Both the position numbers and the translations under genes were made by a program. A stretch of 10,236 nt of DNA from Escherichia coli (GTDB taxonomy: Bacteria; Pseudomonadota; Gammaproteobacteria; Enterobacterales; Enterobacteriaceae), in the NCBI RefSeq assembly GCF_003334355.1, contig NZ_QOWP01000056.1, one strand, 5' to 3'. Position 1 is the first letter of the stretch, and every line of letters starts with the position of its first letter. The notes beneath the pieces were generated by a model. The model did no database searches. It was given only the letters and a program-made list of their open reading frames with translations, and was not told where the DNA came from. Below are positions 1-10,236 of this stretch, piece by piece.

Positions 1-158
1 TCGAAACGTACTCTCAACAGTTCGCTTAGGCATGGAAGTTTTGCGGCATTCTGGCTACACAATAACAAGGGAAGACTTACTCGTGGCTGCAACCCTACTA
101 GCTCAAAATTTATTCACACATGGTTACGCTTTGGGGAAATTATGAGGGGATCTCTCAG
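1..158 (+). mobile_element. IS10 (Tn10-type) terminal segment: transposase 3' end plus terminal inverted repeat; element continues beyond the window edge
   Basis: 137-158 AAATTATGAGGGGATCTCTCAG is the reverse complement of the IS10 terminal repeat CTGAGAGATCCCCTCATAATTT as I recall it. The frame ending at 145 reads as an IS10 transposase C-terminus. Recognised from memory, not verified by search. Confidence 0.7.
2..145 (+). CDS. IS10 transposase, C-terminal fragment (5'-partial at window edge)
   Basis: Open frame from window start to TGA 143-145; translation ...[37 protein letters not shown] matches my recollection of the IS10 transposase C-terminus. Stop lies 13 bp inside the IS terminus. 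Confidence 0.65.
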
Positions 159-267
159 CACCCTGCGTGAGTTTCACGAGAAGCTGCGTGAACTGCTGAC
201 GACGCTGAATCTGAAGCTGGAACCGGCGGATGATTTTCGTGATGAACCGGTGAAGTTAACGGCGTGA
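159..267 (+). pseudogene. crl: crl 3' remnant (sigma-S-binding factor Crl); 5' two-thirds replaced by the IS10 insertion
   Basis: Frame translation [35 protein letters not shown] (stop 265-267) matches the Crl C-terminus as I recall it. Convergent with phoE as in E. coli. Sequence upstream of 159 is IS10, not crl. Confidence 0.7.
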
Positions 268-276
268 GTGAAATGT

Positions 277-297
277 GCCGGATGTATCACATCCGGC
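277..297. terminator. Hairpin between convergent crl and phoE; candidate bidirectional intrinsic terminator
   Basis: GCCGGATG (277-284) / CATCCGGC (290-297) perfect 8-bp stem, 5-nt loop, A/T-rich flanks on both sides, placed between two convergent stop codons (267 and 306). Confidence 0.5.
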
Positions 298-305
298 AAT
301 ATCCA

Positions 306-1361
306 TTAAAACTGATAGGTCATGCCAACCGCGACAATATCATCATTATTAATATTCAATTTGTTATCGCTATCCAGTTGGTTGATTTTATAATCAACAA
401 ACGCTGACATATTTTTGTTGAAATAATACGTAGCCCCGACATCGATATAATTGACCAGATCTTCATCACCGATACCTTCAATATCTTTCCCTTTCGATAA
501 GACATAACCCAGCGATGGACGCAGACCAAAGTCAAACTGGTATTGAGCGACCGCTTCAAAGTTCTGTGTCTTATTGGCAAAGCCGCCAGTTATTGGCGTC
601 ATTTTGCGTGTTTCAGAATAAAAAGTTGCCAGATAAATATTATTGGCATCGTATTTCAGACCTGTAGCCCATGCTTCTGCACGCTTGCCTGTGCCACGGC
701 TTTGCAGGTTCTGCTCGTTGGTGCGATCTGAGTTGGTATAGGCCCCACTAATGGCGAAATCGCTGCCGCCAAAGTCATATGTCAATGACGTGCCGAAGCC
801 ATCGCCGTTTTGCTTTTTAACGTCGCGGTTTTCGTTTTTCCCTTGATATTGCAGGGTTAAGTTCAGGCCATCGATAACGCCGAAGAAGTCGGTGTTCCGA
901 TACGTCGCCAGACCGCTGGCGCGTTTGGTCATAAAGTTGTCGGTCTGCGCCGAGGAGTCGCCACCAAATTCCGGGAACATATCGGTCCAGGCTTCCACGT
1001 CATACAACGCGCCCAGGTTACGACCATAATCGAAAGAACCCAAATCTTTATATTTCAACCCGGCAAAAGCGAGACGCGTTTTTTGCTGTGCAGTATCACT
1101 CTCTGCTTTATTACCGGCAAACTCTGCTTCCCAACGACCATAACCAGTCAGTTGATCGTTAATTTGTGTTTCGCCTTTAAAACCAAAACGGATATAACTC
1201 TGGTCGCCATCTTTACTGTCGTTATCACTCATATAATGCATGGCTTTAACTTTGCCATAGACATCCAGTTTATTACCGTCTTTGTTATATATTTCTGCGG
1301 CCTGTACGGATGCAGATGCCACAATGCCCATCACCACTAATGCCAGAGTGCTCTTTTTCAT
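306..1361 (-). CDS. phoE: Outer membrane phosphoporin PhoE
   Basis: 351-aa ORF; signal peptide [21 protein letters not shown], porin-type C-terminal ...VGMTYQF. Sequence recognised as E. coli PhoE. Start placed at the second ATG (1359-1361), which has AGGA 6 nt upstream; the ORF track starts 2 codons earlier at 1367. Confidence 0.96.
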
Positions 1362-1442
1362 TTTCATTCCTGATTTTAATTAACGCGCGAATATTCAGCG
1401 GGAGAGTCCCGTTGAAAACAGGAAAGTTTTTAACCTAAGATT

Positions 1443-1460
1443 GTTAAAGATATATTACAG
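1443..1460 (-). promoter_or_regulatory. Pho box (PhoB binding site) of the phoE promoter
   Basis: Minus-strand CTGTAAT-ATAT-CTTTAAC, ~85-100 nt upstream of the phoE start; fits the CTGTCAT-N4-CTGTCAT Pho box pattern and the known PhoB dependence of phoE. Confidence 0.5.
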
Positions 1461-1497
1461 ATTAATAATATTCTTAAAATGTGGTAATTTAGTAAAT

Positions 1498-1517
1498 CTG
1501 TAATAAAAGCGTAAACA
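1498..1517 (+). promoter_or_regulatory. Possible second, inverted Pho box upstream of phoE
   Basis: CTGTAAT-AAAA-GCGTAAA-CA on the plus strand, i.e. inverted relative to phoE. First half-site is good, second is degenerate. Position is consistent with my recollection of an upstream inverted Pho box at phoE. Confidence 0.3.
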
Positions 1518-1648
1518 ACTGCCGCTAGGCTTGCTGATCCCGCGCAACAAAACGCCATGCTTTGCTCGCAGATAGTTGGCAACCGACGACAGTCCTGCTA
1601 AAACGTTCGTTTGATATCATTTTTCCTAAAATTGAATGGCAGAGAATC

Positions 1649-2752
1649 ATGAGTGACAGCCAGACGCTGGTGGTAAAACTCGGCACCAGTGTGCTAACAG
1701 GCGGATCGCGCCGTCTGAACCGTGCCCATATCGTTGAACTTGTTCGCCAGTGCGCGCAGTTACATGCCGCCGGGCATCGGATTGTTATTGTGACGTCGGG
1801 CGCGATCGCCGCCGGACGTGAGCACCTGGGTTACCCGGAACTGCCAGCGACTATCGCCTCGAAACAACTGCTGGCGGCGGTAGGGCAGAGTCGACTGATT
1901 CAACTGTGGGAACAGCTGTTTTCGATTTATGGCATTCACGTCGGGCAAATGCTGCTGACCCGTGCTGATATGGAAGACCGAGAACGCTTCCTGAACGCCC
2001 GCGACACCCTGCGTGCGTTGCTCGATAACAATATCGTTCCGGTAATCAATGAGAACGATGCTGTCGCTACGGCAGAGATTAAGGTCGGCGATAACGATAA
2101 CCTTTCTGCGCTGGCGGCGATTCTGGCGGGTGCCGATAAACTGTTGCTGCTGACCGATCAAAAAGGTTTGTATACCGCTGATCCGCGCAGCAATCCGCAG
2201 GCAGAACTGATTAAAGATGTTTACGGCATTGATGACGCACTGCGCGCGATTGCCGGTGACAGCGTTTCAGGCCTCGGAACTGGCGGCATGAGTACCAAAT
2301 TGCAGGCCGCTGACGTGGCTTGCCGTGCGGGTATCGACACCATTATTGCCGCGGGCAGCAAGCCGGGCGTTATTGGTGATGTGATGGAAGGCATTTCCGT
2401 CGGTACGCTGTTCCATGCCCAGGCGACTCCGCTTGAAAACCGTAAACGCTGGATTTTCGGTGCGCCGCCTGCGGGGGAAATCACGGTAGATGAAGGGGCA
2501 ACTGCCGCCATTCTGGAACGCGGCAGCTCCCTGTTGCCGAAAGGCATTAAAAGCGTGACTGGCAACTTCTCGCGTGGTGAAGTCATCCGCATTTGCAACC
2601 TCGAAGGCCGCGATATCGCCCACGGTGTCAGTCGTTACAACAGCGATGCATTACGCCGTATTGCCGGACACCACTCGCAAGAAATTGATGCAATACTGGG
2701 ATATGAATACGGCCCGGTTGCCGTTCACCGTGATGACATGATTACCCGTTAA
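1649..2752 (+). CDS. proB: Glutamate 5-kinase (proline biosynthesis)
   Basis: 367-aa ORF beginning [19 protein letters not shown]..., recognised as E. coli ProB. The track ORF begins at an upstream TTG (1562); the ATG at 1649 matches the known N-terminus. Confidence 0.96.
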
Positions 2753-2763
2753 GGAGCAGGCTG

Positions 2764-4017
2764 ATGCTGGAACAAATGGGCATTGCCGCGAAGCAAGCCT
2801 CGTATAAATTAGCGCAACTCTCCAGCCGCGAAAAAAATCGCGTACTGGAAAAAATAGCCGATGAACTGGAAGCACAAAGCGAAATCATCCTCAACGCTAA
2901 CGCGCAGGATGTTGCTGACGCGCGTGCCAACGGCCTTAGCGAAGCGATGCTTGACCGTCTGGCACTGACGCCCGCACGGCTGAAAGGCATTGCCGACGAT
3001 GTGCGCCAGGTGTGTAACCTCGCCGATCCGGTGGGGCAGGTAATCGATGGCGGCGTACTGGACAGCGGCCTGCGTCTTGAGCGTCGTCGCGTACCGCTGG
3101 GGGTTATTGGCGTGATTTATGAAGCGCGCCCGAACGTGACGGTTGATGTCGCTTCGCTGTGCCTGAAAACCGGTAATGCGGTGATCCTGCGCGGTGGCAA
3201 AGAAACGTGTCGCACTAACGCTGCAACGGTGGCGGTGATTCAGGACGCCCTGAAATCCTGCGGCTTACCGGCGGGTGCCGTGCAGGCGATTGATAATCCT
3301 GACCGTGCGCTGGTCAGTGAAATGCTGCGTATGGATAAATACATCGACATGCTGATCCCGCGTGGTGGCGCTGGTTTGCATAAACTGTGCCGTGAACAGT
3401 CGACAATCCCGGTGATCACAGGTGGTATAGGCGTATGCCATATTTACGTTGATGAAAGTGTAGAGATCGCTGAAGCATTAAAAGTGATCGTCAACGCGAA
3501 AACTCAGCGTCCGAGCACATGTAATACGGTTGAAACGTTGCTGGTGAATAAAAACATCGCCGATAGCTTCCTGCCCGCATTAAGCAAACAAATGGCGGAA
3601 AGCGGCGTGACATTACACGCAGATGCAGCTGCACTGGCGCAGTTGCAGGCAGGCCCTGCGAAGGTGGTTGCTGTTAAAGCCGAAGAGTATGACGATGAGT
3701 TTCTGTCATTAGATTTGAACGTCAAAATCGTCAGCGATCTTGACGATGCCATCGCCCATATTCGTGAACACGGCACACAACACTCCGATGCGATCCTGAC
3801 CCGCGATATGCGCAACGCCCAGCGTTTTGTTAACGAAGTGGATTCGTCCGCTGTTTACGTTAACGCCTCTACGCGTTTTACCGACGGCGGCCAGTTTGGT
3901 CTGGGTGCGGAAGTGGCGGTAAGCACACAAAAACTCCACGCGCGTGGCCCAATGGGGCTGGAAGCACTGACCACTTACAAGTGGATCGGCATTGGTGATT
4001 ACACCATTCGTGCGTAA
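2764..4017 (+). CDS. proA: Gamma-glutamyl phosphate reductase (glutamate-5-semialdehyde dehydrogenase)
   Basis: 417-aa [35 protein letters not shown]..., recognised as ProA. AGGAG 2751-2755 precedes the ATG; 11-bp gap after proB indicates an operon. Confidence 0.96.
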
Positions 4018-4022
4018 ATAAA

Positions 4023-4088
4023 ACCGGGTGATGCAAAAGTAGCCATTTGATTCACAAGGCCATTGACGCATCGCCCGGTTAGTTTTAA
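4023..4088 (+). terminator. Long-loop stem structure downstream of proA followed by a short U-run; possible proBA terminator overlapping the thrW promoter region
   Basis: ACCGGGTGATGC (4023-4034) pairs with GCATCGCCCGGT (4067-4078): 12 bp with one G-U, 32-nt loop, then TAGTTTTAACC. The loop is too large for a classic terminator, so this is weak. Confidence 0.3.
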
Positions 4089-4131
4089 CCTTGTCCACCG
4101 TGATTCACGTTCGTGAACATGTCCTTTCAGG

Positions 4132-4207
4132 GCCGATATAGCTCAGTTGGTAGAGCAGCGCATTCGTAATGCGAAGGTCGTAGGTTCGACTCCTATTATC
4201 GGCACCA
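4132..4207 (+). tRNA. thrW: tRNA-Thr (anticodon CGU)
   Basis: 76-nt sequence GCCGATATAGCTCAGTTGGTAGAGCAGCGCATTCGTAATGCGAAGGTCGTAGGTTCGACTCCTATTATCGGCACCA with encoded CCA; anticodon loop carries CGT; matches E. coli thrW. Confidence 0.96.
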
Positions 4208-4224
4208 TTCAAACATCTCCCCAA

Positions 4225-4245
4225 GTCTACTAAAGTCTTTCAAAA
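4225..4245 (+). repeat. Direct repeat copy 1 (GTCTACTAAAGTC + YYTCAAAA) between thrW and int; candidate integrase arm-type or accessory-factor site
   Basis: 13-bp core GTCTACTAAAGTC at 4225-4237 is identical to 4288-4300; flanking CTTTCAAAA vs CCCTCAAAA. Confidence 0.7.
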
Positions 4246-4287
4246 CCCCTTATAATCCGCGTATTAAAGCCCCGTTCGTCTTTTGAC

Positions 4288-4308
4288 GTCTACTAAAGTC
4301 CCTCAAAA
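4288..4308 (+). repeat. Direct repeat copy 2 (GTCTACTAAAGTC + YYTCAAAA)
   Basis: Identical 13-bp core, 63 bp downstream of copy 1. A perfect TATAAT hexamer (4251-4256) lies between the two copies. Confidence 0.7.
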
Positions 4309-4372
4309 TCTACGGTCAGATGGGGGTACTTATGGGGGTATTTGCTGTTCGGTTTAGTGGAGGTACCCCCAA

Positions 4373-5587
4373 GTGAAACTCAATGCCCGTCAAATAGACA
4401 CAGCCAAGCCAAAAGAGAAGGCTTACAAGCTGGCCGATGGTGGCGGTTTGTATCTCTTGGTAAAACCTAATGGAGGTAAATACTGGCGACTTAAATATCG
4501 TGTAGCTGGTAAAGAGAAGCTATTGGCACTAGGTGTGTATCCTGAGGTTACTCTAGCCGATGCTCGGGCAAAACGTGAAGATGCGAAAAGAGGTATCGCT
4601 GGTGGTATCGATCCGATGGAAGCGAAACGAGAGGAAAAGATTGCCCGGGAAACGCAGTTAAACAACACCTTCAAAGATATTGCCCTTGAGTGGCACAGCA
4701 GCAAATTAAAAAAATGGTCTGCTGGTTATGCTTCAGACATCCTCGAAGCCTTCAACAAAGATGTGTTCCCTTACATTGGCAAAAAACCAATCGCCGAAAT
4801 CAAACCACTTGAACTTCTGAATGTGCTGCGGCGCATTGAGGGGCGCGGTGCTACAGAAAAAGCCAAAAAAGTGAGGCAGCGGTGCGGGGAAGTTTTCCGC
4901 TATGCAATAGTCACTGGTCGCGCAGAGTATAACCCTGCACCAGACCTTACTAGCGCGATGCAAGGCCATGAATCTAATCATTACCCTTTCCTTACAGCCA
5001 AAGAATTACCTGATTTTTTCAAGGCATTGTCCAGTTACTCAGGAAGCGCATTGGTTGTTATGGCGGCTCGTCTACTGATTATCACAGGCTTGCGGACTGG
5101 CGAACTACGTGGCGCATTATGGGATGAAATTGATTTCAACAAGGCTCTCTGGGAGATACCCGCTTCACGTATGAAAATGCGGCGGCCTCATATTGTGCCA
5201 TTGTCTGAGCAGGCTCTTTCGCTTATTGGGAAGATTAGAGAAATAACAGGCAATTACCCTCTTATGTTTCCCGGGCGCAATGATCCAAGGAAAACAATGA
5301 GTGAGGCCAGCATAAACCAAGTGTTTAAGCGCATTGGCTACGCTGGACGTGTAACTGGTCATGGGTTCCGGCACACTATGAGTACGATTTTGCATGAGCA
5401 GGGCTATAACACCGCGTGGATAGAAACGCAGCTCGCTCACGTTGATAAGAACTCAATTCGTGGCACATACAACCATGCGCAATATCTGGATGGAAGGCGG
5501 GAGATGCTTCAATGGTATGCCGACTATATGGATTCTCTCGAGCATGGCGGAAATGTGGTGCATATGGTGTTTGAAAAACACGCATGA
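4373..5587 (+). CDS. Site-specific tyrosine recombinase, P4-type integrase family
   Basis: 404-aa ORF with GTG start, GGAGG 4359-4363. N-terminus KLNARQIDTAKPKEKAYKLADGGGLYLLVKPNGGKYWRLKYR is typical of the P4-family integrase N-terminal arm-binding domain; C-terminal GHGFRHT...RGTYNHAQY carries the H-x-x-R and catalytic Tyr motifs. Sits immediately 3' of a tRNA. Confidence 0.92.
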   Translation: MKLNARQIDTAKPKEKAYKLADGGGLYLLVKPNGGKYWRLKYRVAGKEKLLALGVYPEVTLADARAKREDAKRGIAGGIDPMEAKREEKIARETQLNNTFKDIALEWHSSKLKKWSAGYASDILEAFNKDVFPYIGKKPIAEIKPLELLNVLRRIEGRGATEKAKKVRQRCGEVFRYAIVTGRAEYNPAPDLTSAMQGHESNHYPFLTAKELPDFFKALSSYSGSALVVMAARLLIITGLRTGELRGALWDEIDFNKALWEIPASRMKMRRPHIVPLSEQALSLIGKIREITGNYPLMFPGRNDPRKTMSEASINQVFKRIGYAGRVTGHGFRHTMSTILHEQGYNTAWIETQLAHVDKNSIRGTYNHAQYLDGRREMLQWYADYMDSLEHGGNVVHMVFEKHA

Positions 5588-5840
5588 AACAACTGGACAA
5601 GTATACAGAGGTTTACTAAAGTATAGGGGAGTAGATTGATAAAAACTCACAGAGGATTACTATTTAACAGTTAGCCCTGGAGAAGGGCAATCGCTCTTTT
5701 AACAACGAAGATGGAATCTTCTACGCAGCTGAAAAGCTGGATGCTCTTTAACAGCCTTTGGTGCTTTCCTGATGCAGGAAAGAATAGGGATACATGCACC
5801 TTTACAATGCATGTAATGATTCATCCATGAGGCTGCGGAT

Positions 5841-5863
5841 CGCTGACAAAGCGCAATTGCTCT
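5841..5863 (+). repeat. 23-bp direct repeat copy 1 (CGCTGACAAAGCGCAATTGCTCT) with palindromic GCAATTGC core; candidate operator
   Basis: Identical to 5954-5976. Part of a 26-bp imperfect dyad TGACAAAGCGCAA|TTGCTCTTTAACA. The right arm GCTCTTTAACA recurs at 5743-5753 and, with one extra T, at 5692-5704. Confidence 0.8.
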
Positions 5864-5953
5864 TTAACATTGATGTGGGCGGGATGGTTCGTCCCGCAGT
5901 GACCGATAGATTTCTATCGGGAAACATACAATGATTCAAATATGAATCTACGG

Positions 5954-5976
5954 CGCTGACAAAGCGCAATTGCTCT
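5954..5976 (+). repeat. 23-bp direct repeat copy 2 (CGCTGACAAAGCGCAATTGCTCT)
   Basis: Perfect copy 113 bp downstream of copy 1. Similarity extends upstream imperfectly (ATGAGGCTGCGGAT vs ATGAATCTACGG). Confidence 0.8.
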
Positions 5977-6238
5977 CTTGCCTGCCCACCATGCCCTGAA
6001 AAAGGGCGTTCTTTAAAACTACTGGATGTCACGCCTAATAGCGTGATCCTGCCGAAATGCAGGGTAGCTCTACCCTTGTGGAGCAAACAAACCAAAACAA
6101 TCTGACTATCTTTTATAAAAGACCGCAATATGTTTTTCATATTGTGGTCTTTGGCGTATTCGACATTTGATGCAAATAAAACTCTCGCCATTCGTTGCAG
6201 GAGGGAGTTATTGCGTCATTAGTACAGGATATTAATAA

Positions 6239-6442
6239 ATGGCTAATTACAATTCATTAATTCGTCTCTCTGAAGTTCAAAGGCGAACTGGTTATAGCAA
6301 AGCATGGATTTATCGTCTTATTAGTCAGGGGAGGTTCCCTAAACAGGTAAAAATTGGAAGTCGGGCAATTGCTTTTGTTGAGTCTGAAATAGATGAATGG
6401 ATTGAGAAGTGTATATTAGAATCTAGAGACGAGGTGGCCTGA
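6239..6442 (+). CDS. alpA: AlpA-family phage regulatory protein (Xis/Vis-like winged-helix DNA-binding protein)
   Basis: 67-aa ORF MANYNSLIRLSEVQRRTGYSKAWIYRLISQGRFPKQVKIGSRAIAFVESEIDEWIEK...; helix-turn-helix segment and E-I-D-E-W motif characteristic of AlpA/Vis family; typical position downstream of a P4-type integrase. Confidence 0.85.
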   Translation: MANYNSLIRLSEVQRRTGYSKAWIYRLISQGRFPKQVKIGSRAIAFVESEIDEWIEKCILESRDEVA

Positions 6443-6873
6443 TGGAAAAGAAAAACCGCCCATTACAGGCGGCTAATTCAGATATTCGCGTATCTGATGT
6501 TACGCCCCTGACAAAATCCCTTCAAGCACCAAAGCGCACACCGAAAAAGCATCGTGCCAGAGTCTATATGCTGCGTACTGGTATAGAGGGATGGACAGAA
6601 AATGACATTCTTCGCTACTGCCGTCTGTCTTCTGGTCGTAACTATGCAACAGAGTTAGAACGCCAGCTTGGAATCACTCTGGAGCGTATCGACGAAAAGA
6701 ATCCTGATGGTATCGGAACACACCTTCGCTACCGTTTCTCCTGCCGTGGTGATGTTCTGAAAGTGATCACTCATGTTAACCATCTTGCGAGCATAAATGA
6801 TCACAACGGACTTTCTCAGCAGGAAATTGCCGACATTCTGAAACTCTACCCGGACGCGTTTAACGCCGCCTAA
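6442..6873 (+). CDS. Hypothetical protein (143 aa), basic N-terminal tail; function unknown
   Basis: ATG overlaps the alpA stop (TGATG); GAGGTGG SD at 6431-6437. No family recognised. Confidence 0.7.
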   Translation: MEKKNRPLQAANSDIRVSDVTPLTKSLQAPKRTPKKHRARVYMLRTGIEGWTENDILRYCRLSSGRNYATELERQLGITLERIDEKNPDGIGTHLRYRFSCRGDVLKVITHVNHLASINDHNGLSQQEIADILKLYPDAFNAA

Positions 6874-6885
6874 CGGAGACTGAAA

Positions 6886-7719
6886 ATGAACATCGAAAAA
6901 AGCAGATTAATTTCTGAGGCCGCCCCTCATCTGAACGCCTCTCTGGGCACAATTAACGGTAATGAATTTGCCGCAATTGTCCCGGTTATTCCTGGTCATA
7001 TCGGTGGGCGTGAAACCAATATTGTTAGCGCAAAAGCGTTACACAAAGCGTTGGGCGTGGGAAAAGACTTCTCTACATGGATCACTGATCGCATCTCTGA
7101 ATATGACTTCACCATTGGGCACGATTACTCAGTCCATAAAACAATTTCCCCAAATTTGGGGAAAAGCCCGAATGGCGCGGCTTACAGCAAGATTAAGCAG
7201 TCTGGCAGACCCGGCAAAGACTATCTGTTAAGTGTCGGAATGGCGAAAGAACTGGCAATGATCGAACGCAATGATCAGGGTCGCGCTATCCGCCGTTATT
7301 TCATCCAGTGCGAGGAAGAATTACAGCGTAGCGTGCCTGAAATCGCCGCCCGCTATCGTCGCCAGCTAAAAGCCCGTATCAGTGCCGCAAACAACTTTAA
7401 GCCAATGTGCGATGCGCTGAATATGGCCCGTGCCGAGATGGGTAAAACGACGCAGCAACACCACTACACAAACGAGAGCAATATGATTTCTCGTATCGTT
7501 CTTGGTGGGCTAACTGCTAAGCAGTGGGCGCGGATAAATGGCTATTCTGGCGAACCTCGCGACCATATGAACGCAGAACAGCTTGAGCACCTCTCATATC
7601 TCGAAAGCACCAATATCACGTTAATTGATATGGGCATGGAATATGAGCAGCGCAAAGGAGAACTCACCCGCCTGTCGCAACGCTGGCTCGCCAAGCGTCT
7701 GGAGGTGGTCAATGTCTAA
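6886..7719 (+). CDS. Phage antirepressor-like protein (AntA/KilAC-type N-terminal domain), 277 aa
   Basis: GGAGA SD 6875-6879. Motifs ...AKALHKALGVGKDFSTWITDRISEYDF... and ...DYLLSVGMAKELAMIERNDQGRAIRRYFIQCEE... resemble the AntA-type antirepressor N-terminal domain as I recall it. Confidence 0.8.
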   Translation: MNIEKSRLISEAAPHLNASLGTINGNEFAAIVPVIPGHIGGRETNIVSAKALHKALGVGKDFSTWITDRISEYDFTIGHDYSVHKTISPNLGKSPNGAAYSKIKQSGRPGKDYLLSVGMAKELAMIERNDQGRAIRRYFIQCEEELQRSVPEIAARYRRQLKARISAANNFKPMCDALNMARAEMGKTTQQHHYTNESNMISRIVLGGLTAKQWARINGYSGEPRDHMNAEQLEHLSYLESTNITLIDMGMEYEQRKGELTRLSQRWLAKRLEVVNV

Positions 7720-7894
7720 GCCAACAGGAACACCACAACCACAAAAACGCTACAAAGATGCCCACGGAGCACTCGTTACTGTCGAAAGCGTGTCTCACAA
7801 CCGAGTGACGTTTTATCGCGACGGGTATCAATCGCCATGCGTACAACCGCTGGCGCGTTTCATGAAGGAGTTCGCGGAGGTTAACAAATGCTAA
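7712..7894 (+). CDS. Small phage-type protein (60 aa); tentatively DUF4222-like
   Basis: ATG 7712 with GGAGGTGG 6 nt upstream, overlapping the upstream stop (ATGTCTAA). Translation [60 protein letters not shown]. The track ORF starts further upstream (7625) inside the preceding gene; the internal start is better supported. Confidence 0.65.
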   Translation: MSKPTGTPQPQKRYKDAHGALVTVESVSHNRVTFYRDGYQSPCVQPLARFMKEFAEVNKC

Positions 7895-8955
7895 CCGTCC
7901 AGAAGAAGACATTTTCACTGGCTGGTATGTCGCCAAAATCCAGCAATATGACGGCAAAGTCAGGCATTAATACAGCAGATACAAGCAAAGTTTATCATTT
8001 GCTGGTGGTCGGAACGGATGCCTTAACCATATCAGAAATCTCGGGCGATGATATTAGCATTGAGAAGGTCAGCGGCTGCGCCAGAAAATTTCTGGTCGTA
8101 GATGATGTCTTCCGCTCGTGTAGTGACTCCACAAAAACATTCGTCCACGCGCGTGACGTTAACGAAATGAGCGCGATGTACTGTGCATCTGGTGCTTCCA
8201 ATAGCGAGTTTTCGGAGTCCATAAAAAAGAGCTTGCCGTTATGCGGCAACACGGTTTATGGTTATAAGGCACCTCATAAAACGGGTGCCGGGATTGGCGT
8301 CCTGGTAAATCGAATGGCGACATATGACGCGCCGAGCGTCTTTTTTTATGTCGTAGGTCTGACTCACCCATTTTTTGGGCGTTGGTGTATAATCCAGCGC
8401 CTTTGTCAATCAATGGTGGCTCAGGCAGGGGCTTCTTCGGAAGCGCCGGTATCCATTCGAGCCGGTTACGCCAACCCTGTCTGGGCTACCACCAGCGAAA
8501 TTGGCGTTTCCGGTGGTAGCGTTACATGCTATCGAATGGAGGCTGCCACATGCTGGCTACTACCCCTACCCAAAAACCGCAATTTATCTGGATTATCGCC
8601 GCAGTTCGCCGCGATTGCCCGACAATTACCGCCAAAATTCATCATATTGCTGCCGAGTCTGAACGCGATGCTCGCCGTTCTCTGGTGCGCGATCACGTCT
8701 GCTTTTTTGCTGGTCGTATCCGCATGGAGGTGGCACATGATTAAAACCTACGATGTGCATATGGATCCCCTCGAACGCACAAGCCAGATCATCACACTGA
8801 CAGAAGTGATTAACGACATTCTGGTGAGCAACTCTCCCTCACGAGACGAAAGACTGAAGGCGTTACTCGCGATATTGGATCTCGCCGTTCGTGACGTTCA
8901 TTTCCTGCTGGAAGGTGGCGAAATGCCAGGAAAAACGGGGGCAACCAATGAATAA
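7888..8955 (+). CDS. Unresolved 355-codon open frame: real N-terminal gene start at 7888; frame stays open through the structured RNA region, the Icd-like gene (other frame) and the 8737 small gene
   Basis: ATG 7888 with GGAGG 7 nt upstream and ATGCTAA overlap with the upstream stop supports initiation. No stop in this frame until 8953-8955. Residues ~176-215 ([35 protein letters not shown]) resemble what databases label ash family protein, but this stretch coincides with strong RNA hairpins. The true C-terminus is unknown. Confidence 0.3.
8326..8347 (+). terminator. Intrinsic-terminator-like element inside the 7888 frame
   Basis: GACGC (8326-8330) / GCGTC (8336-8340) 5-bp GC-rich stem, 5-nt loop, followed by seven T (8341-8347). 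A second T6 run is at 8371-8376. Confidence 0.35.
8388..8393 (+). promoter_or_regulatory. Consensus -10 hexamer TATAAT, TG immediately upstream; possible promoter for the structured RNA/icd leader
   Basis: GTGTATAAT at 8385-8393. No convincing -35 at 17 bp spacing, so weak. Confidence 0.25.
8428..8520 (+). ncRNA. Candidate c4/CI-type antisense regulatory RNA (three consecutive hairpins)
   Basis: HP1 8431-8444: GCTTC/GAAGC stem with TTCG tetraloop. HP2 8445-8466: 6-bp stem (2 wobble) with a 10-nt loop carrying TCCATTCGA (8452-8460). HP3 8485-8520: 9-bp stem CTACCACC.../...GGTGGTAG plus 6-bp inner stem, TTGG loop. The HP2 loop is exactly complementary to TCGAATGGA (8532-8540), which overlaps the GGAGG SD of the Icd-like gene, and 8/9 complementary to 8310-8317. 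Confidence 0.4.
8550..8744 (+). CDS. Host cell division inhibitor Icd-like protein (64 aa)
   Basis: ATG 8550 with GGAGG 8538-8542. Translation [64 protein letters not shown]; the F-x-W-x-x-x-A-V-R-R ... E-x-x-A-R-R ... F-A-x-R pattern matches my recollection of Icd-like proteins of P1/P4-type elements. The track start at 8526 lacks an SD. Confidence 0.6.
   Translation: MLATTPTQKPQFIWIIAAVRRDCPTITAKIHHIAAESERDARRSLVRDHVCFFAGRIRMEVAHD
8737..8955 (+). CDS. Small acidic hypothetical protein (72 aa), independently initiated
   Basis: ATG 8737 with GGAGGTGG at 8727-8734; overlaps the icd-like stop as ATGATTAA. Translation [72 protein letters not shown]. Same frame as the 7888 ORF. Confidence 0.55.
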   Translation: MIKTYDVHMDPLERTSQIITLTEVINDILVSNSPSRDERLKALLAILDLAVRDVHFLLEGGEMPGKTGATNE

Positions 8956-9142
8956 CTCAATTAATACCCCTCGCCTTACGTCCGCACTTCAATTAATCGA
9001 GCAAGCAGCGGCTGTCCTGGTTGCTGTCAGTCTTTCGGCTGAAGAAATGGACGCTGCTGATGTCGTGGATGCGATTAAAGCGTGCTCATCTTTGGTTAAC
9101 GATGCCCGTGCCGAGCTGGTAATTCTTGGGGGTGAAAAATGA
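8948..9142 (+). CDS. Small acidic hypothetical protein (64 aa)
   Basis: ATG 8948 overlapping the upstream stop (ATGAATAA); [64 protein letters not shown]. The track start at 8891 lies inside the upstream gene. Confidence 0.6.
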   Translation: MNNSINTPRLTSALQLIEQAAAVLVAVSLSAEEMDAADVVDAIKACSSLVNDARAELVILGGEK

Positions 9143-9402
9143 ATATCAACTTAATTTATCGTCATCCGTGTGAGCTGGAAATTGAATCATTGCTGGGGCG
9201 TGAAGAGCCATATCCAGACACATTCACTCCCGCAGATTGCGCGACTGAACGGCTTACCAGAGCGCGCACAGGTCTGGTTCATGTGATGAATGAGATTGTT
9301 CCCTCGGTGGGAGGGGAACAGGCGACAGTAATCAATAGCTGGCTACAAAAAGTTACCTCCCTGATAGATATCGGTTTAATCGATGTGGAGAGTGCGAAAT
9401 GA
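9139..9402 (+). CDS. Small acidic hypothetical protein (87 aa)
   Basis: ATGA overlap with upstream stop; GGGGGTG upstream; MNINLIYRHPCELEIESLLGREEPYPDTF... Confidence 0.65.
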   Translation: MNINLIYRHPCELEIESLLGREEPYPDTFTPADCATERLTRARTGLVHVMNEIVPSVGGEQATVINSWLQKVTSLIDIGLIDVESAK

Positions 9403-9620
9403 CCAACATCCAGCTCATTGAAGCGCAATGTCGCATCGAACAGGTTCAGACTGTTTTAGGGTTCTGGCTTGAAGGGGCCAGCCCCAGCAACAGAGACAAG
9501 TTAATGATTGGCGCGGTTATGTCACTGCTCAATGGCGTACCAGAAGCTATTCAGGAAGCGGACGAATTGTTGGGCAAATATGAGTTACAGAATCATTCAG
9601 GCGAGGCGAAACATGAATAA
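9399..9620 (+). CDS. Small acidic hypothetical protein (73 aa)
   Basis: ATGA overlap with upstream stop; GGAG at 9387-9390; MTNIQLIEAQCRIEQVQTVLGFWLEGASPSNRDKLMIGAVMSLLNGVPEAIQEADELLGKYELQNHSGEAKHE. Confidence 0.6.
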   Translation: MTNIQLIEAQCRIEQVQTVLGFWLEGASPSNRDKLMIGAVMSLLNGVPEAIQEADELLGKYELQNHSGEAKHE

Positions 9621-10161
9621 TTTCTTAACCTTCCATGCAGAAGCAACGCCTGACGGCGTAAACATCATGCACCGCAGCAACGATGGCATGACAGAACGCG
9701 TTGAGACCGTCTCATATATTGATGCCGTAAATCGTCTGGATGCCGGGGATTATGACGATAAACCAGATGAAGGCATGTTTATACATCTCGCTATTGCCAG
9801 TGGCGGCAACCAGGGATATTTCGATTACACATCACAGCATCACGTGATTATGTGGCGCTGGCTGATAGCAACAGCATTCATCAATGAAATGAGAAAGGAA
9901 AACGGCACCGTCAGCATTATTGATGACAGTGGCAATCATTCCGTGGTTTCTGTTTATTCCAATGGCATCGTCGCCATGCCGCTGTATCCAGTAGCAGAGC
10001 GCCTCGCTATGGCAAACAACATTGAGGGCGCAATGATCGAGAAATATGGTGTTGATGTCGGAACAAAGAATGCCATCATTTTTTACAGCAACATGTTCGA
10101 TGTCGAACAGGGAACACTCACTTCGTTTGGGCGAGAAGTGCTTGCCGATCTTCACAACTGA
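9613..10161 (+). CDS. Hypothetical protein (182 aa); stop codon supplied by the first 3 nt of the downstream IS, so possibly C-terminally truncated
   Basis: ATG 9613 overlapping upstream stop (ATGAATAA), GAGG at 9603-9606; MNNFLTFHAEATPDGVNIMHRSNDGMTERVETVSYIDAVNRLDAGDYDDKPDEGMF.... The track start at 9508 is inside the upstream gene. TGA 10159-10161 coincides with the IS terminal TGAACCGCC. Confidence 0.7.
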   Translation: MNNFLTFHAEATPDGVNIMHRSNDGMTERVETVSYIDAVNRLDAGDYDDKPDEGMFIHLAIASGGNQGYFDYTSQHHVIMWRWLIATAFINEMRKENGTVSIIDDSGNHSVVSVYSNGIVAMPLYPVAERLAMANNIEGAMIEKYGVDVGTKNAIIFYSNMFDVEQGTLTSFGREVLADLHN

Positions 10162-10236
10162 ACCGCCCCGGAAATCCTGGAGACTAAACTCCCTGAGAAA
10201 GAGGTAAACAGGATGACTAAAAATACTCGTTTTTCC
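10159..10236 (+). mobile_element. IS3-family insertion sequence (IS629/IS1203-like), left end; continues beyond window
   Basis: TGAACCGCCCCGGAAATCCTGGAGACTAAACTCCCTGAGAAAGAGGTAAACAGG then ATG...MTKNTRFS matches my recollection of the IS629-type left inverted repeat and OrfA N-terminus. From memory, not verified. Confidence 0.65.
10213..10236 (+). CDS. IS3-family transposase OrfA, N-terminal 8 codons (3'-partial at window edge)
   Basis: ATG 10213 preceded by GAGG; MTKNTRFS...; only 24 nt available. Confidence 0.5.

Follow-up and report, generated by a model that had tools for sequence, protein, structure and literature searches.

The crl gene of this Escherichia coli isolate is very probably interrupted by an IS10-Right element that entered a non-K-12 chromosome by cut-and-paste transposition at CACCCTGCG, and the resulting allele is a mechanistically ordinary IS10 knockout at a recurrent target site. 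The window, i.e., the whole stretch of DNA that was analysed, is the entire draft contig QOWP01000056.1 of assembly GCA_003334355.1 (10,236 bp) and presents repeats at both ends. Its left end falls within IS10, a repeat at which the assembly stopped; the remainder of the element and the crl 5' part of GCA_003334355.1 are located on other contigs, beyond the window. The features surrounding the junction are listed below by window position.

1-158, plus strand: 3' terminal 158 nt of IS10-Right (annotated by PGAP as an IS4-like element of the ISVsa5 family), 100% identical to the R100 copy
2-145, plus strand: last 47 codons and stop codon of the IS10 transposase gene (gene call at 1-145, 47 aa)
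136-158, plus strand: inside-end terminal inverted repeat (reverse complement CTGAGAGATCCCCTCATAATTTC), defined by comparing the IS10-Right and IS10-Left ends of R100
142-267, plus strand: chimeric 41-codon open reading frame, MRGSLS from IS10 followed by Crl residues 99-133
159-267, plus strand: crl 3' fragment, codons 99-133 and stop codon, without the promoter and the first 98 codons
159-167, plus strand: 9-bp target CACCCTGCG, right copy, equivalent to crl nt 294-302
276-298, no strand assigned: GC-rich hairpin in the interval where crl and phoE converge, from RNA folding of 262-312
306-1361, minus strand: phoE, intact, 351 codons, convergent with crl, from the list of open reading frames and a 351-aa gene call with porin Pfam domains
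4132-4207: tRNA-Thr (thrW)

The original prediction placed an IS10 terminus at position 158, and this was borne out by the first 158 nt of the window, which are identical at 158 of 158 positions to the IS10 copy that adjoins tetD in the Tn10 of plasmid R100 (L004, positions 11001-11158). The copy adjoining tetD is IS10-Right, and it is the inside end of this element that abuts crl. The same segment differs at six positions from the IS10-Left type found at the DH5alpha junction. Of the 1,329-bp element, the window holds these 158 nt up to the inside end, whose terminus ...GGGGATCTCTCAG (finishing ...TCAG) falls at base 158; the outside end of IS10 is CTGATGAATCCCC. The transposase gene reads in the same direction as crl, towards the inside end, and its stop codon at 143-145 has the same position relative to the terminus as that of the full-length transposase of R100 and DH5alpha (402 aa, PF01609). 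A GATC Dam site is found at 149-152, within the inside-end inverted repeat. In published work on IS10, the activity of inside ends is under methylation control through such a GATC site.

On the other side of the junction, window 159-267 corresponds to crl nt 294-402. These 109 nt begin with the final base of codon 98 and run through codons 99-133 to the stop codon at 265-267. This segment is identical to crl of E. coli B18271 and its translation is the C-terminus of Crl. Aligning 1-158 to IS10/Tn10 and 159-267 to crl, as had been proposed as a check, yielded exact matches for both, and because both halves match known sequences exactly, the junction is no chance resemblance. The 133-codon reading frame of crl (PF07417) is not intact: the codons present, 99-133, are joined to IS10 and represent a gene remnant, in agreement with the roughly 35 remaining codons that had been claimed. 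The predicted in-frame chimera of 41 codons starting at ATG 142 also matched both the list of open reading frames and its translation, and every position given in the original prediction proved right. Six of its residues come from IS10 and 35 from Crl, it stays in the crl frame across the junction, and its ATG overlaps the stop codon of the transposase (ATGA, 142-145). Any translation of this open reading frame would not exceed that of the transposase message, which is very low, and no function is expected of it because only the C-terminal third of Crl is encoded. An identical 41-aa product has been called on 81 public contigs, and the five locations listed are all of the K-12/DH5alpha type. 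In RefSeq, the product is also listed as 'hypothetical protein [Acinetobacter pittii]' (WP_281504003.1), probably because DNA of an E. coli cloning strain is present in the assembly of another organism.

The chromosomal part of the window does not have a K-12 background. Ten SNPs separate window 159-1010 from K-12, with non-K-12 bases on the crl side starting at position 243, and none separates the window from E. coli B18271 up to position 1436. The wild-type gene order crl-phoE-proB-proA-thrW is kept, and the part of the frsA-crl-phoE-proBA synteny that falls in the window is present (crl 3' end, convergent phoE, proB, proA, and thrW). The hairpin between crl and phoE is likely their shared terminator: it has a 10-bp stem and a 3-nt loop with a folding energy of -18.7 kcal/mol (z = -4.0 relative to shuffled sequences), and it is missed by a simple terminator scan because it has no T run. 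Further right, a P4-like or PICI-like integrative element adjoins thrW (window 4373-10158), with genes for a tyrosine integrase, an AlpA-type HTH protein, an AntA antirepressor, a DUF4222 protein, and an Ash-family protein; a TOPRIM/DUF927 primase comes next in relatives. Window 4300-10158 is 100% identical to elements of several commensal E. coli (A29, TOK-001), and one further contig (L011) presents this same element in another chromosomal context. At the right end of the contig (10159-10236), IS629/IS1203 is represented by its first 78 nt, which match the pO157 Sakai copy at 100%. This element sits in a hypothetical gene of the island (200 aa), whose product is now 182 aa long (window 9613-10161) with a TGA supplied by the IS; the same IS629 insertion was also found in at least two other public samples (L012 and L014).

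One of these samples presents the empty site. The sister contig L012 (run ERR4578542) aligns to window 159-10186 without gaps and with 100.000% identity over 10,028 nt, and the match takes in the IS629 junction on the right of the window. In L012, crl is uninterrupted over its 133 codons and contains ...GAGCACACCCTGCGTGAG... at the site. Over these 10 kb the two are the same clone, and L012 represents its pre-insertion state. Since the two are otherwise identical and crl is intact in L012, the gain of IS10 in crl is recent in this clone. The central claim of the original prediction, a disruption of crl by IS10, is thus strongly, if indirectly, supported by two lines of evidence: the empty site of L012 and the reciprocal junctions between crl nt 1-302 and IS10, with the same CACCCTGCG, that are found in hundreds of public contigs. 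We infer the left junction of the crl::IS10 allele of GCA_003334355.1.

In the mechanism that we favor, IS10-Right, which is the active flanking element of the tetracycline-resistance transposon Tn10, would have moved by cut-and-paste into crl at nt 294-302 with its transposase gene in the direction of crl, such that its inside end would abut the crl 3' fragment. The product of the 5' part of the gene would end at residue 101, with the IS10 terminus CTGA providing an immediate in-frame TGA, and a promoter-less remnant of 35 codons would be left of the crl 3' part. The lineage of DH5alpha would owe the same crl breakpoint to a Tn10 acting through its inside ends. The target would be directly duplicated: the right copy is read in the window, and the left copy is read in the crl 5' contigs of other isolates and in DH5alpha.

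The same breakpoint is present in the DH5alpha family. We searched for three junctions: crl 3' preceded by the inside end, crl 3' preceded by the outside end, and crl 5' joined to the outside end. The inside end of IS10 was found joined to crl at the same base in 38 complete DH5alpha-family genomes and in a TOP10 assembly (partial coverage). Among 5,426 complete RefSeq E. coli genomes, we identified no natural genome with the junction in either orientation; the complete-genome matches belong to the DH5alpha family only, and no closed natural genome therefore shows the full insertion. In the TOP10 assembly (NZ_CP080620.1, L002, positions 1-12308), the crl 3' junction is surrounded by truncated IS, rhs, gad, and tuf fragments, and this patchwork looks like an assembly problem rather than a real structure. 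In a DH5alpha-type genome (NZ_CP047127.1, L001, positions 4471-8642), we observed the order phoE 5', IS10-Left, crl 3' with phoE 3' (inverted), IS10-Right, and crl 5'. DH5alpha and NEB 5-alpha share with the window the breakpoint at crl nt 294-302 (CACCCTGCG), the inside end abutting crl 3', and the 41-aa chimeric open reading frame, and they also encode a 101-aa truncated Crl. In contrast, the copy next to crl 3' is IS10-Left in DH5alpha and IS10-Right in the window. DH5alpha possesses a second copy, IS10-Right, which abuts crl 5' through its inside end, and this crl 5' part ends in CACCCTGCG, so that both crl halves of DH5alpha carry the 9 bp next to IS10 ends. Both of its outside ends are joined to the halves of phoE with the 9-bp duplication GGCGTTGTA, and its segment from crl 3' to phoE 3' is inverted in a K-12 background, whereas phoE is intact and the background is non-K-12 in the window. 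The two inside ends of Tn10 can attack a nearby target. From the anatomy of the DH5alpha structure, we infer a Tn10-promoted crl-phoE inversion, with Tn10 in phoE and the tet segment lost.

Given this structure, the window junction might represent one end of an IS10- or Tn10-promoted rearrangement (inversion or deletion), with the 5' part of crl distant, inverted, or deleted. DH5alpha has exactly such an arrangement at the same breakpoint, with both crl halves on inside ends and phoE split, and the end seen in the window, the inside one, is that on which such events depend; what lies to the left is beyond the contig. An inside end at the junction is not diagnostic, however, because any free-standing IS10 presents its inside end at one flank. 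Moreover, phoE and everything to its right are intact and colinear with L012, and the partner junction expected of a simple insertion in this orientation, crl 5' joined to the outside end, predominates among natural isolates (8 of 10 contigs, see below). The hallmarks of the DH5alpha-type inversion, a second IS10 in phoE and an inverted segment, are absent from the window, which is colinear with the wild type over 10 kb; the intact phoE therefore indicates that the window does not carry this inversion. We consider a rearrangement unlikely. With phoE intact and the wild-type order preserved, the junctions of the window and of DH5alpha therefore represent independent events on the same 9 bp. DH5alpha-type sequences also present five differences in the first 172 chromosomal bases, in addition to those in the IS10 part, and a derivation of the window from DH5alpha, or as a K-12 hybrid, was rejected on the basis of SNPs in both parts.

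Insertions at this position can be recognized by their product. Both ends of IS10 begin with CTGA and, therefore, an insertion at CACCCTGCG ends the crl 5' frame as ...HTLR-stop after 101 aa. The Crl(1-101) product was found on 492 public contigs for the non-K-12 allele and on 277 for the K-12 allele. All ten of the crl 5' contigs that we examined end in ...CACCCTGCG followed by an IS10 end, which is the outside end in eight (six Left-like and two Right-like) and the inside end in two. These ten contigs differ pairwise by 13-79 SNPs over the adjoining 3,872 bp. Differing crl haplotypes are present 36-93 nt from the junction within one orientation class, and a more divergent crl allele, with 9 differences over 302 nt, also breaks at this base, where it meets an inside end. 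Counting the combinations of orientation, IS10 variant, and haplotype, these sequences imply at least eight independent natural IS10 insertions at crl nt 294-302, besides those of the window and DH5alpha. The shared nucleotide is in part a product of the sampling because the contigs were found through the 101-aa product; what is informative is that the insertions are numerous and diverse and occur in both orientations, and that they agree with two independently found junctions, those of the window and DH5alpha. Truncated Crl products of 95, 108, and 112 aa were evaluated as further IS10 sites and rejected, since they correspond to plain contig ends without IS sequence. The exact junction of the window was found neither in genome contigs (48-mer) nor in metagenome contigs (34-mer), and the source genome is outside both collections.

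It is still less probable that the junction is an assembly artefact or a minority allele, whether from a k-mer chimera, DH5alpha contamination, or a minority IS10 insertion. Several observations point in this direction: the contig ends in repeats on both sides, two metagenome scaffolds (L007 and L008) are evident chimeras, and the junction is found in no complete natural genome. In addition, many short-read contigs break within ~40 nt of the crl site without IS sequence (L032-L070). These contigs come from diverse backgrounds and consist purely of crl; some end at nt 285/286, 324-326, or 336/337, and others start at nt 293-298. The IS-free breaks suggest assembly forks where intact and interrupted crl coexist in one read set, and such coexistence may come from mixed cultures, metagenomes, or contamination by a cloning strain; the breaks do not quite coincide with what a simple k-mer calculation gives (nt 323 for k = 31). 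Against an artefact, the window carries IS10-Right where DH5alpha carries IS10-Left next to crl 3' (the two types first differ 29 nt away from the junction), the crl side is of non-K-12 type from position 243, and the assembly runs 158 nt into IS10 without a competing path through intact crl. Finally, outside-end junctions in eight of the ten natural 5' contigs are beyond what DH5alpha could supply.

A partial duplicate of the crl 3' end downstream of an intact crl (crl-phoE'-IS10-'crl-phoE), which would leave the strain Crl-positive, is highly improbable: this layout is seen in the two metagenome scaffolds L007 and L008, but they combine a Right/Left hybrid IS10 with a K-12 background, consistent with mis-joined DH5alpha and wild-type reads, and there is no sign of a duplication in the window or in L012. 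In these ENA scaffolds (positions 7543-11220), an intact crl is followed by the 3' part of phoE, IS10, the 3' part of crl, and an intact phoE, and the outside end of the IS10 is Right-type while its inside end is Left-type. The scaffolds most likely result from a mis-join of DH5alpha reads with another K-12-like strain. Their layout was rejected as a model for the window because a Right/Left hybrid IS10 is typical of a collapsed assembly. A simple IS10-Right insertion remains the preferred explanation of the window.

The target is poorly predicted by the classical consensus. CACCCTGCG matches the classical IS10 consensus NGCTNAGCN at three of the six specified positions, which does not make it a strong site, and 13 other crl sites match it at four of six. 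The same 9 bp fully fit the relaxed consensus NRCNNNGYN, of which there are six sites in crl; this consensus is attributed to Kovarik et al. in PMC4574204. A non-consensus IS10 target, 5'-TACCGGGCG-3', has likewise been described upstream of cat in vectors of the pSU8 family (PMC4574204). The repeated and independent use of one nucleotide suggests that the position reflects the target preference of the IS10 transposase. Nothing suggests that the DH5alpha event was selected for loss of Crl and, because it was apparently unselected, target choice by the transposase likely contributes to this recurrence. Selection for reduced sigma-S activity possibly amplifies the use of the crl site.

The consequence of the insertion for Crl can be predicted from its structure. 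Crl promotes the association of sigma-S with core RNA polymerase and shifts the competition among sigma factors toward sigma-S, and it matters most when sigma-S is scarce. The solved structures of Crl span all 133 residues, and in the core of the protein, helices alpha1 and alpha3 flank a sheet of five strands. A single-sequence AlphaFold model with moderate confidence (mean pLDDT 62.7, ~78-80 over the helix) places the long helix at residues 90-113. The insertion breaks the protein in the middle of helix alpha3, with residues 1-101 on one side, and the disrupted Crl is therefore most probably non-functional. Speaking against this, residues D36 and R51, which are reported to be essential for sigma-S binding, lie in the retained Crl(1-101) part. 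The isolate is predicted to be Crl-null on the basis of the break in helix alpha3. No polar effect on the neighboring genes is expected because a convergent gene comes after crl.

The isolate is predicted to present lower sigma-S-dependent expression when sigma-S is scarce, with effects on curli, the rdar morphotype, and some stress genes. Its near-identical sister isolate with intact crl (run ERR4578542) constitutes a ready-made control. Because the allele is found on hundreds of contigs from unrelated E. coli, crl::IS10 is a common natural variant, and studies relating genotype to phenotype for biofilm and stress traits should score it. DH5alpha and its relatives possess neither an intact crl nor an intact phoE as a result of a Tn10 remnant, which matters for work on curli, sigma-S, and porins, and the DH5alpha-type junction provides a handy marker of cloning-strain DNA in assemblies. 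In the literature that we surveyed, whose coverage is incomplete, we found no description of a crl::IS10 allele, of a crl hot spot for IS10, or of the crl defect of DH5alpha, nor any mention of the joint loss of crl and phoE by a Tn10 remnant in DH5alpha. The crl site offers a clean chromosomal IS10 target that the textbook consensus does not predict, and one non-canonical target in a sigma-S regulator, reused in wild strains and in the commonest cloning strain, is both useful and testable.

A broader idea can be put forward tentatively, and we regard it as rather doubtful in its full form: crl nt 294-302 would be a preferred natural landing site of IS10, such that carriers of Tn10 or IS10 (typically tetracycline-resistant strains) could switch off Crl and lower sigma-S activity in one step and at a high rate. 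If this is true, the gain of a resistance transposon would alter the evolution of the general stress response. The repeated appearance of insertions at the crl site across unrelated lineages, possibly also as subpopulations of cultures, would then be a sign of positive selection, comparable to the well-known rpoS polymorphism.

These results can be compared to known systems. In E. coli K-12 MG1655, itself in wide use, crl is likewise naturally knocked out by an IS (crl::IS1); the element is IS1 and not IS10, and it occupies another position in crl. We found no evidence in this analysis that the IS1 site of MG1655 is used recurrently. The pSU site TACCGGGCG also resembles the crl site: it received independent IS10 insertions on one nucleotide, and it misfits NGCTNAGCN and fits NRCNNNGYN (PMC4574204). 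CACCCTGCG and TACCGGGCG have seven of nine bases in common (ACC..GCG). The two systems differ in their setting: the pSU insertions are on a plasmid, under chloramphenicol selection acting via the outward promoter of IS10, whereas the crl site is chromosomal and its use leads to a loss of function. Finally, the natural loss-of-function polymorphism of rpoS is, like crl::IS10, recurrent and lowers sigma-S activity, but it affects a different gene and its selective basis is documented.
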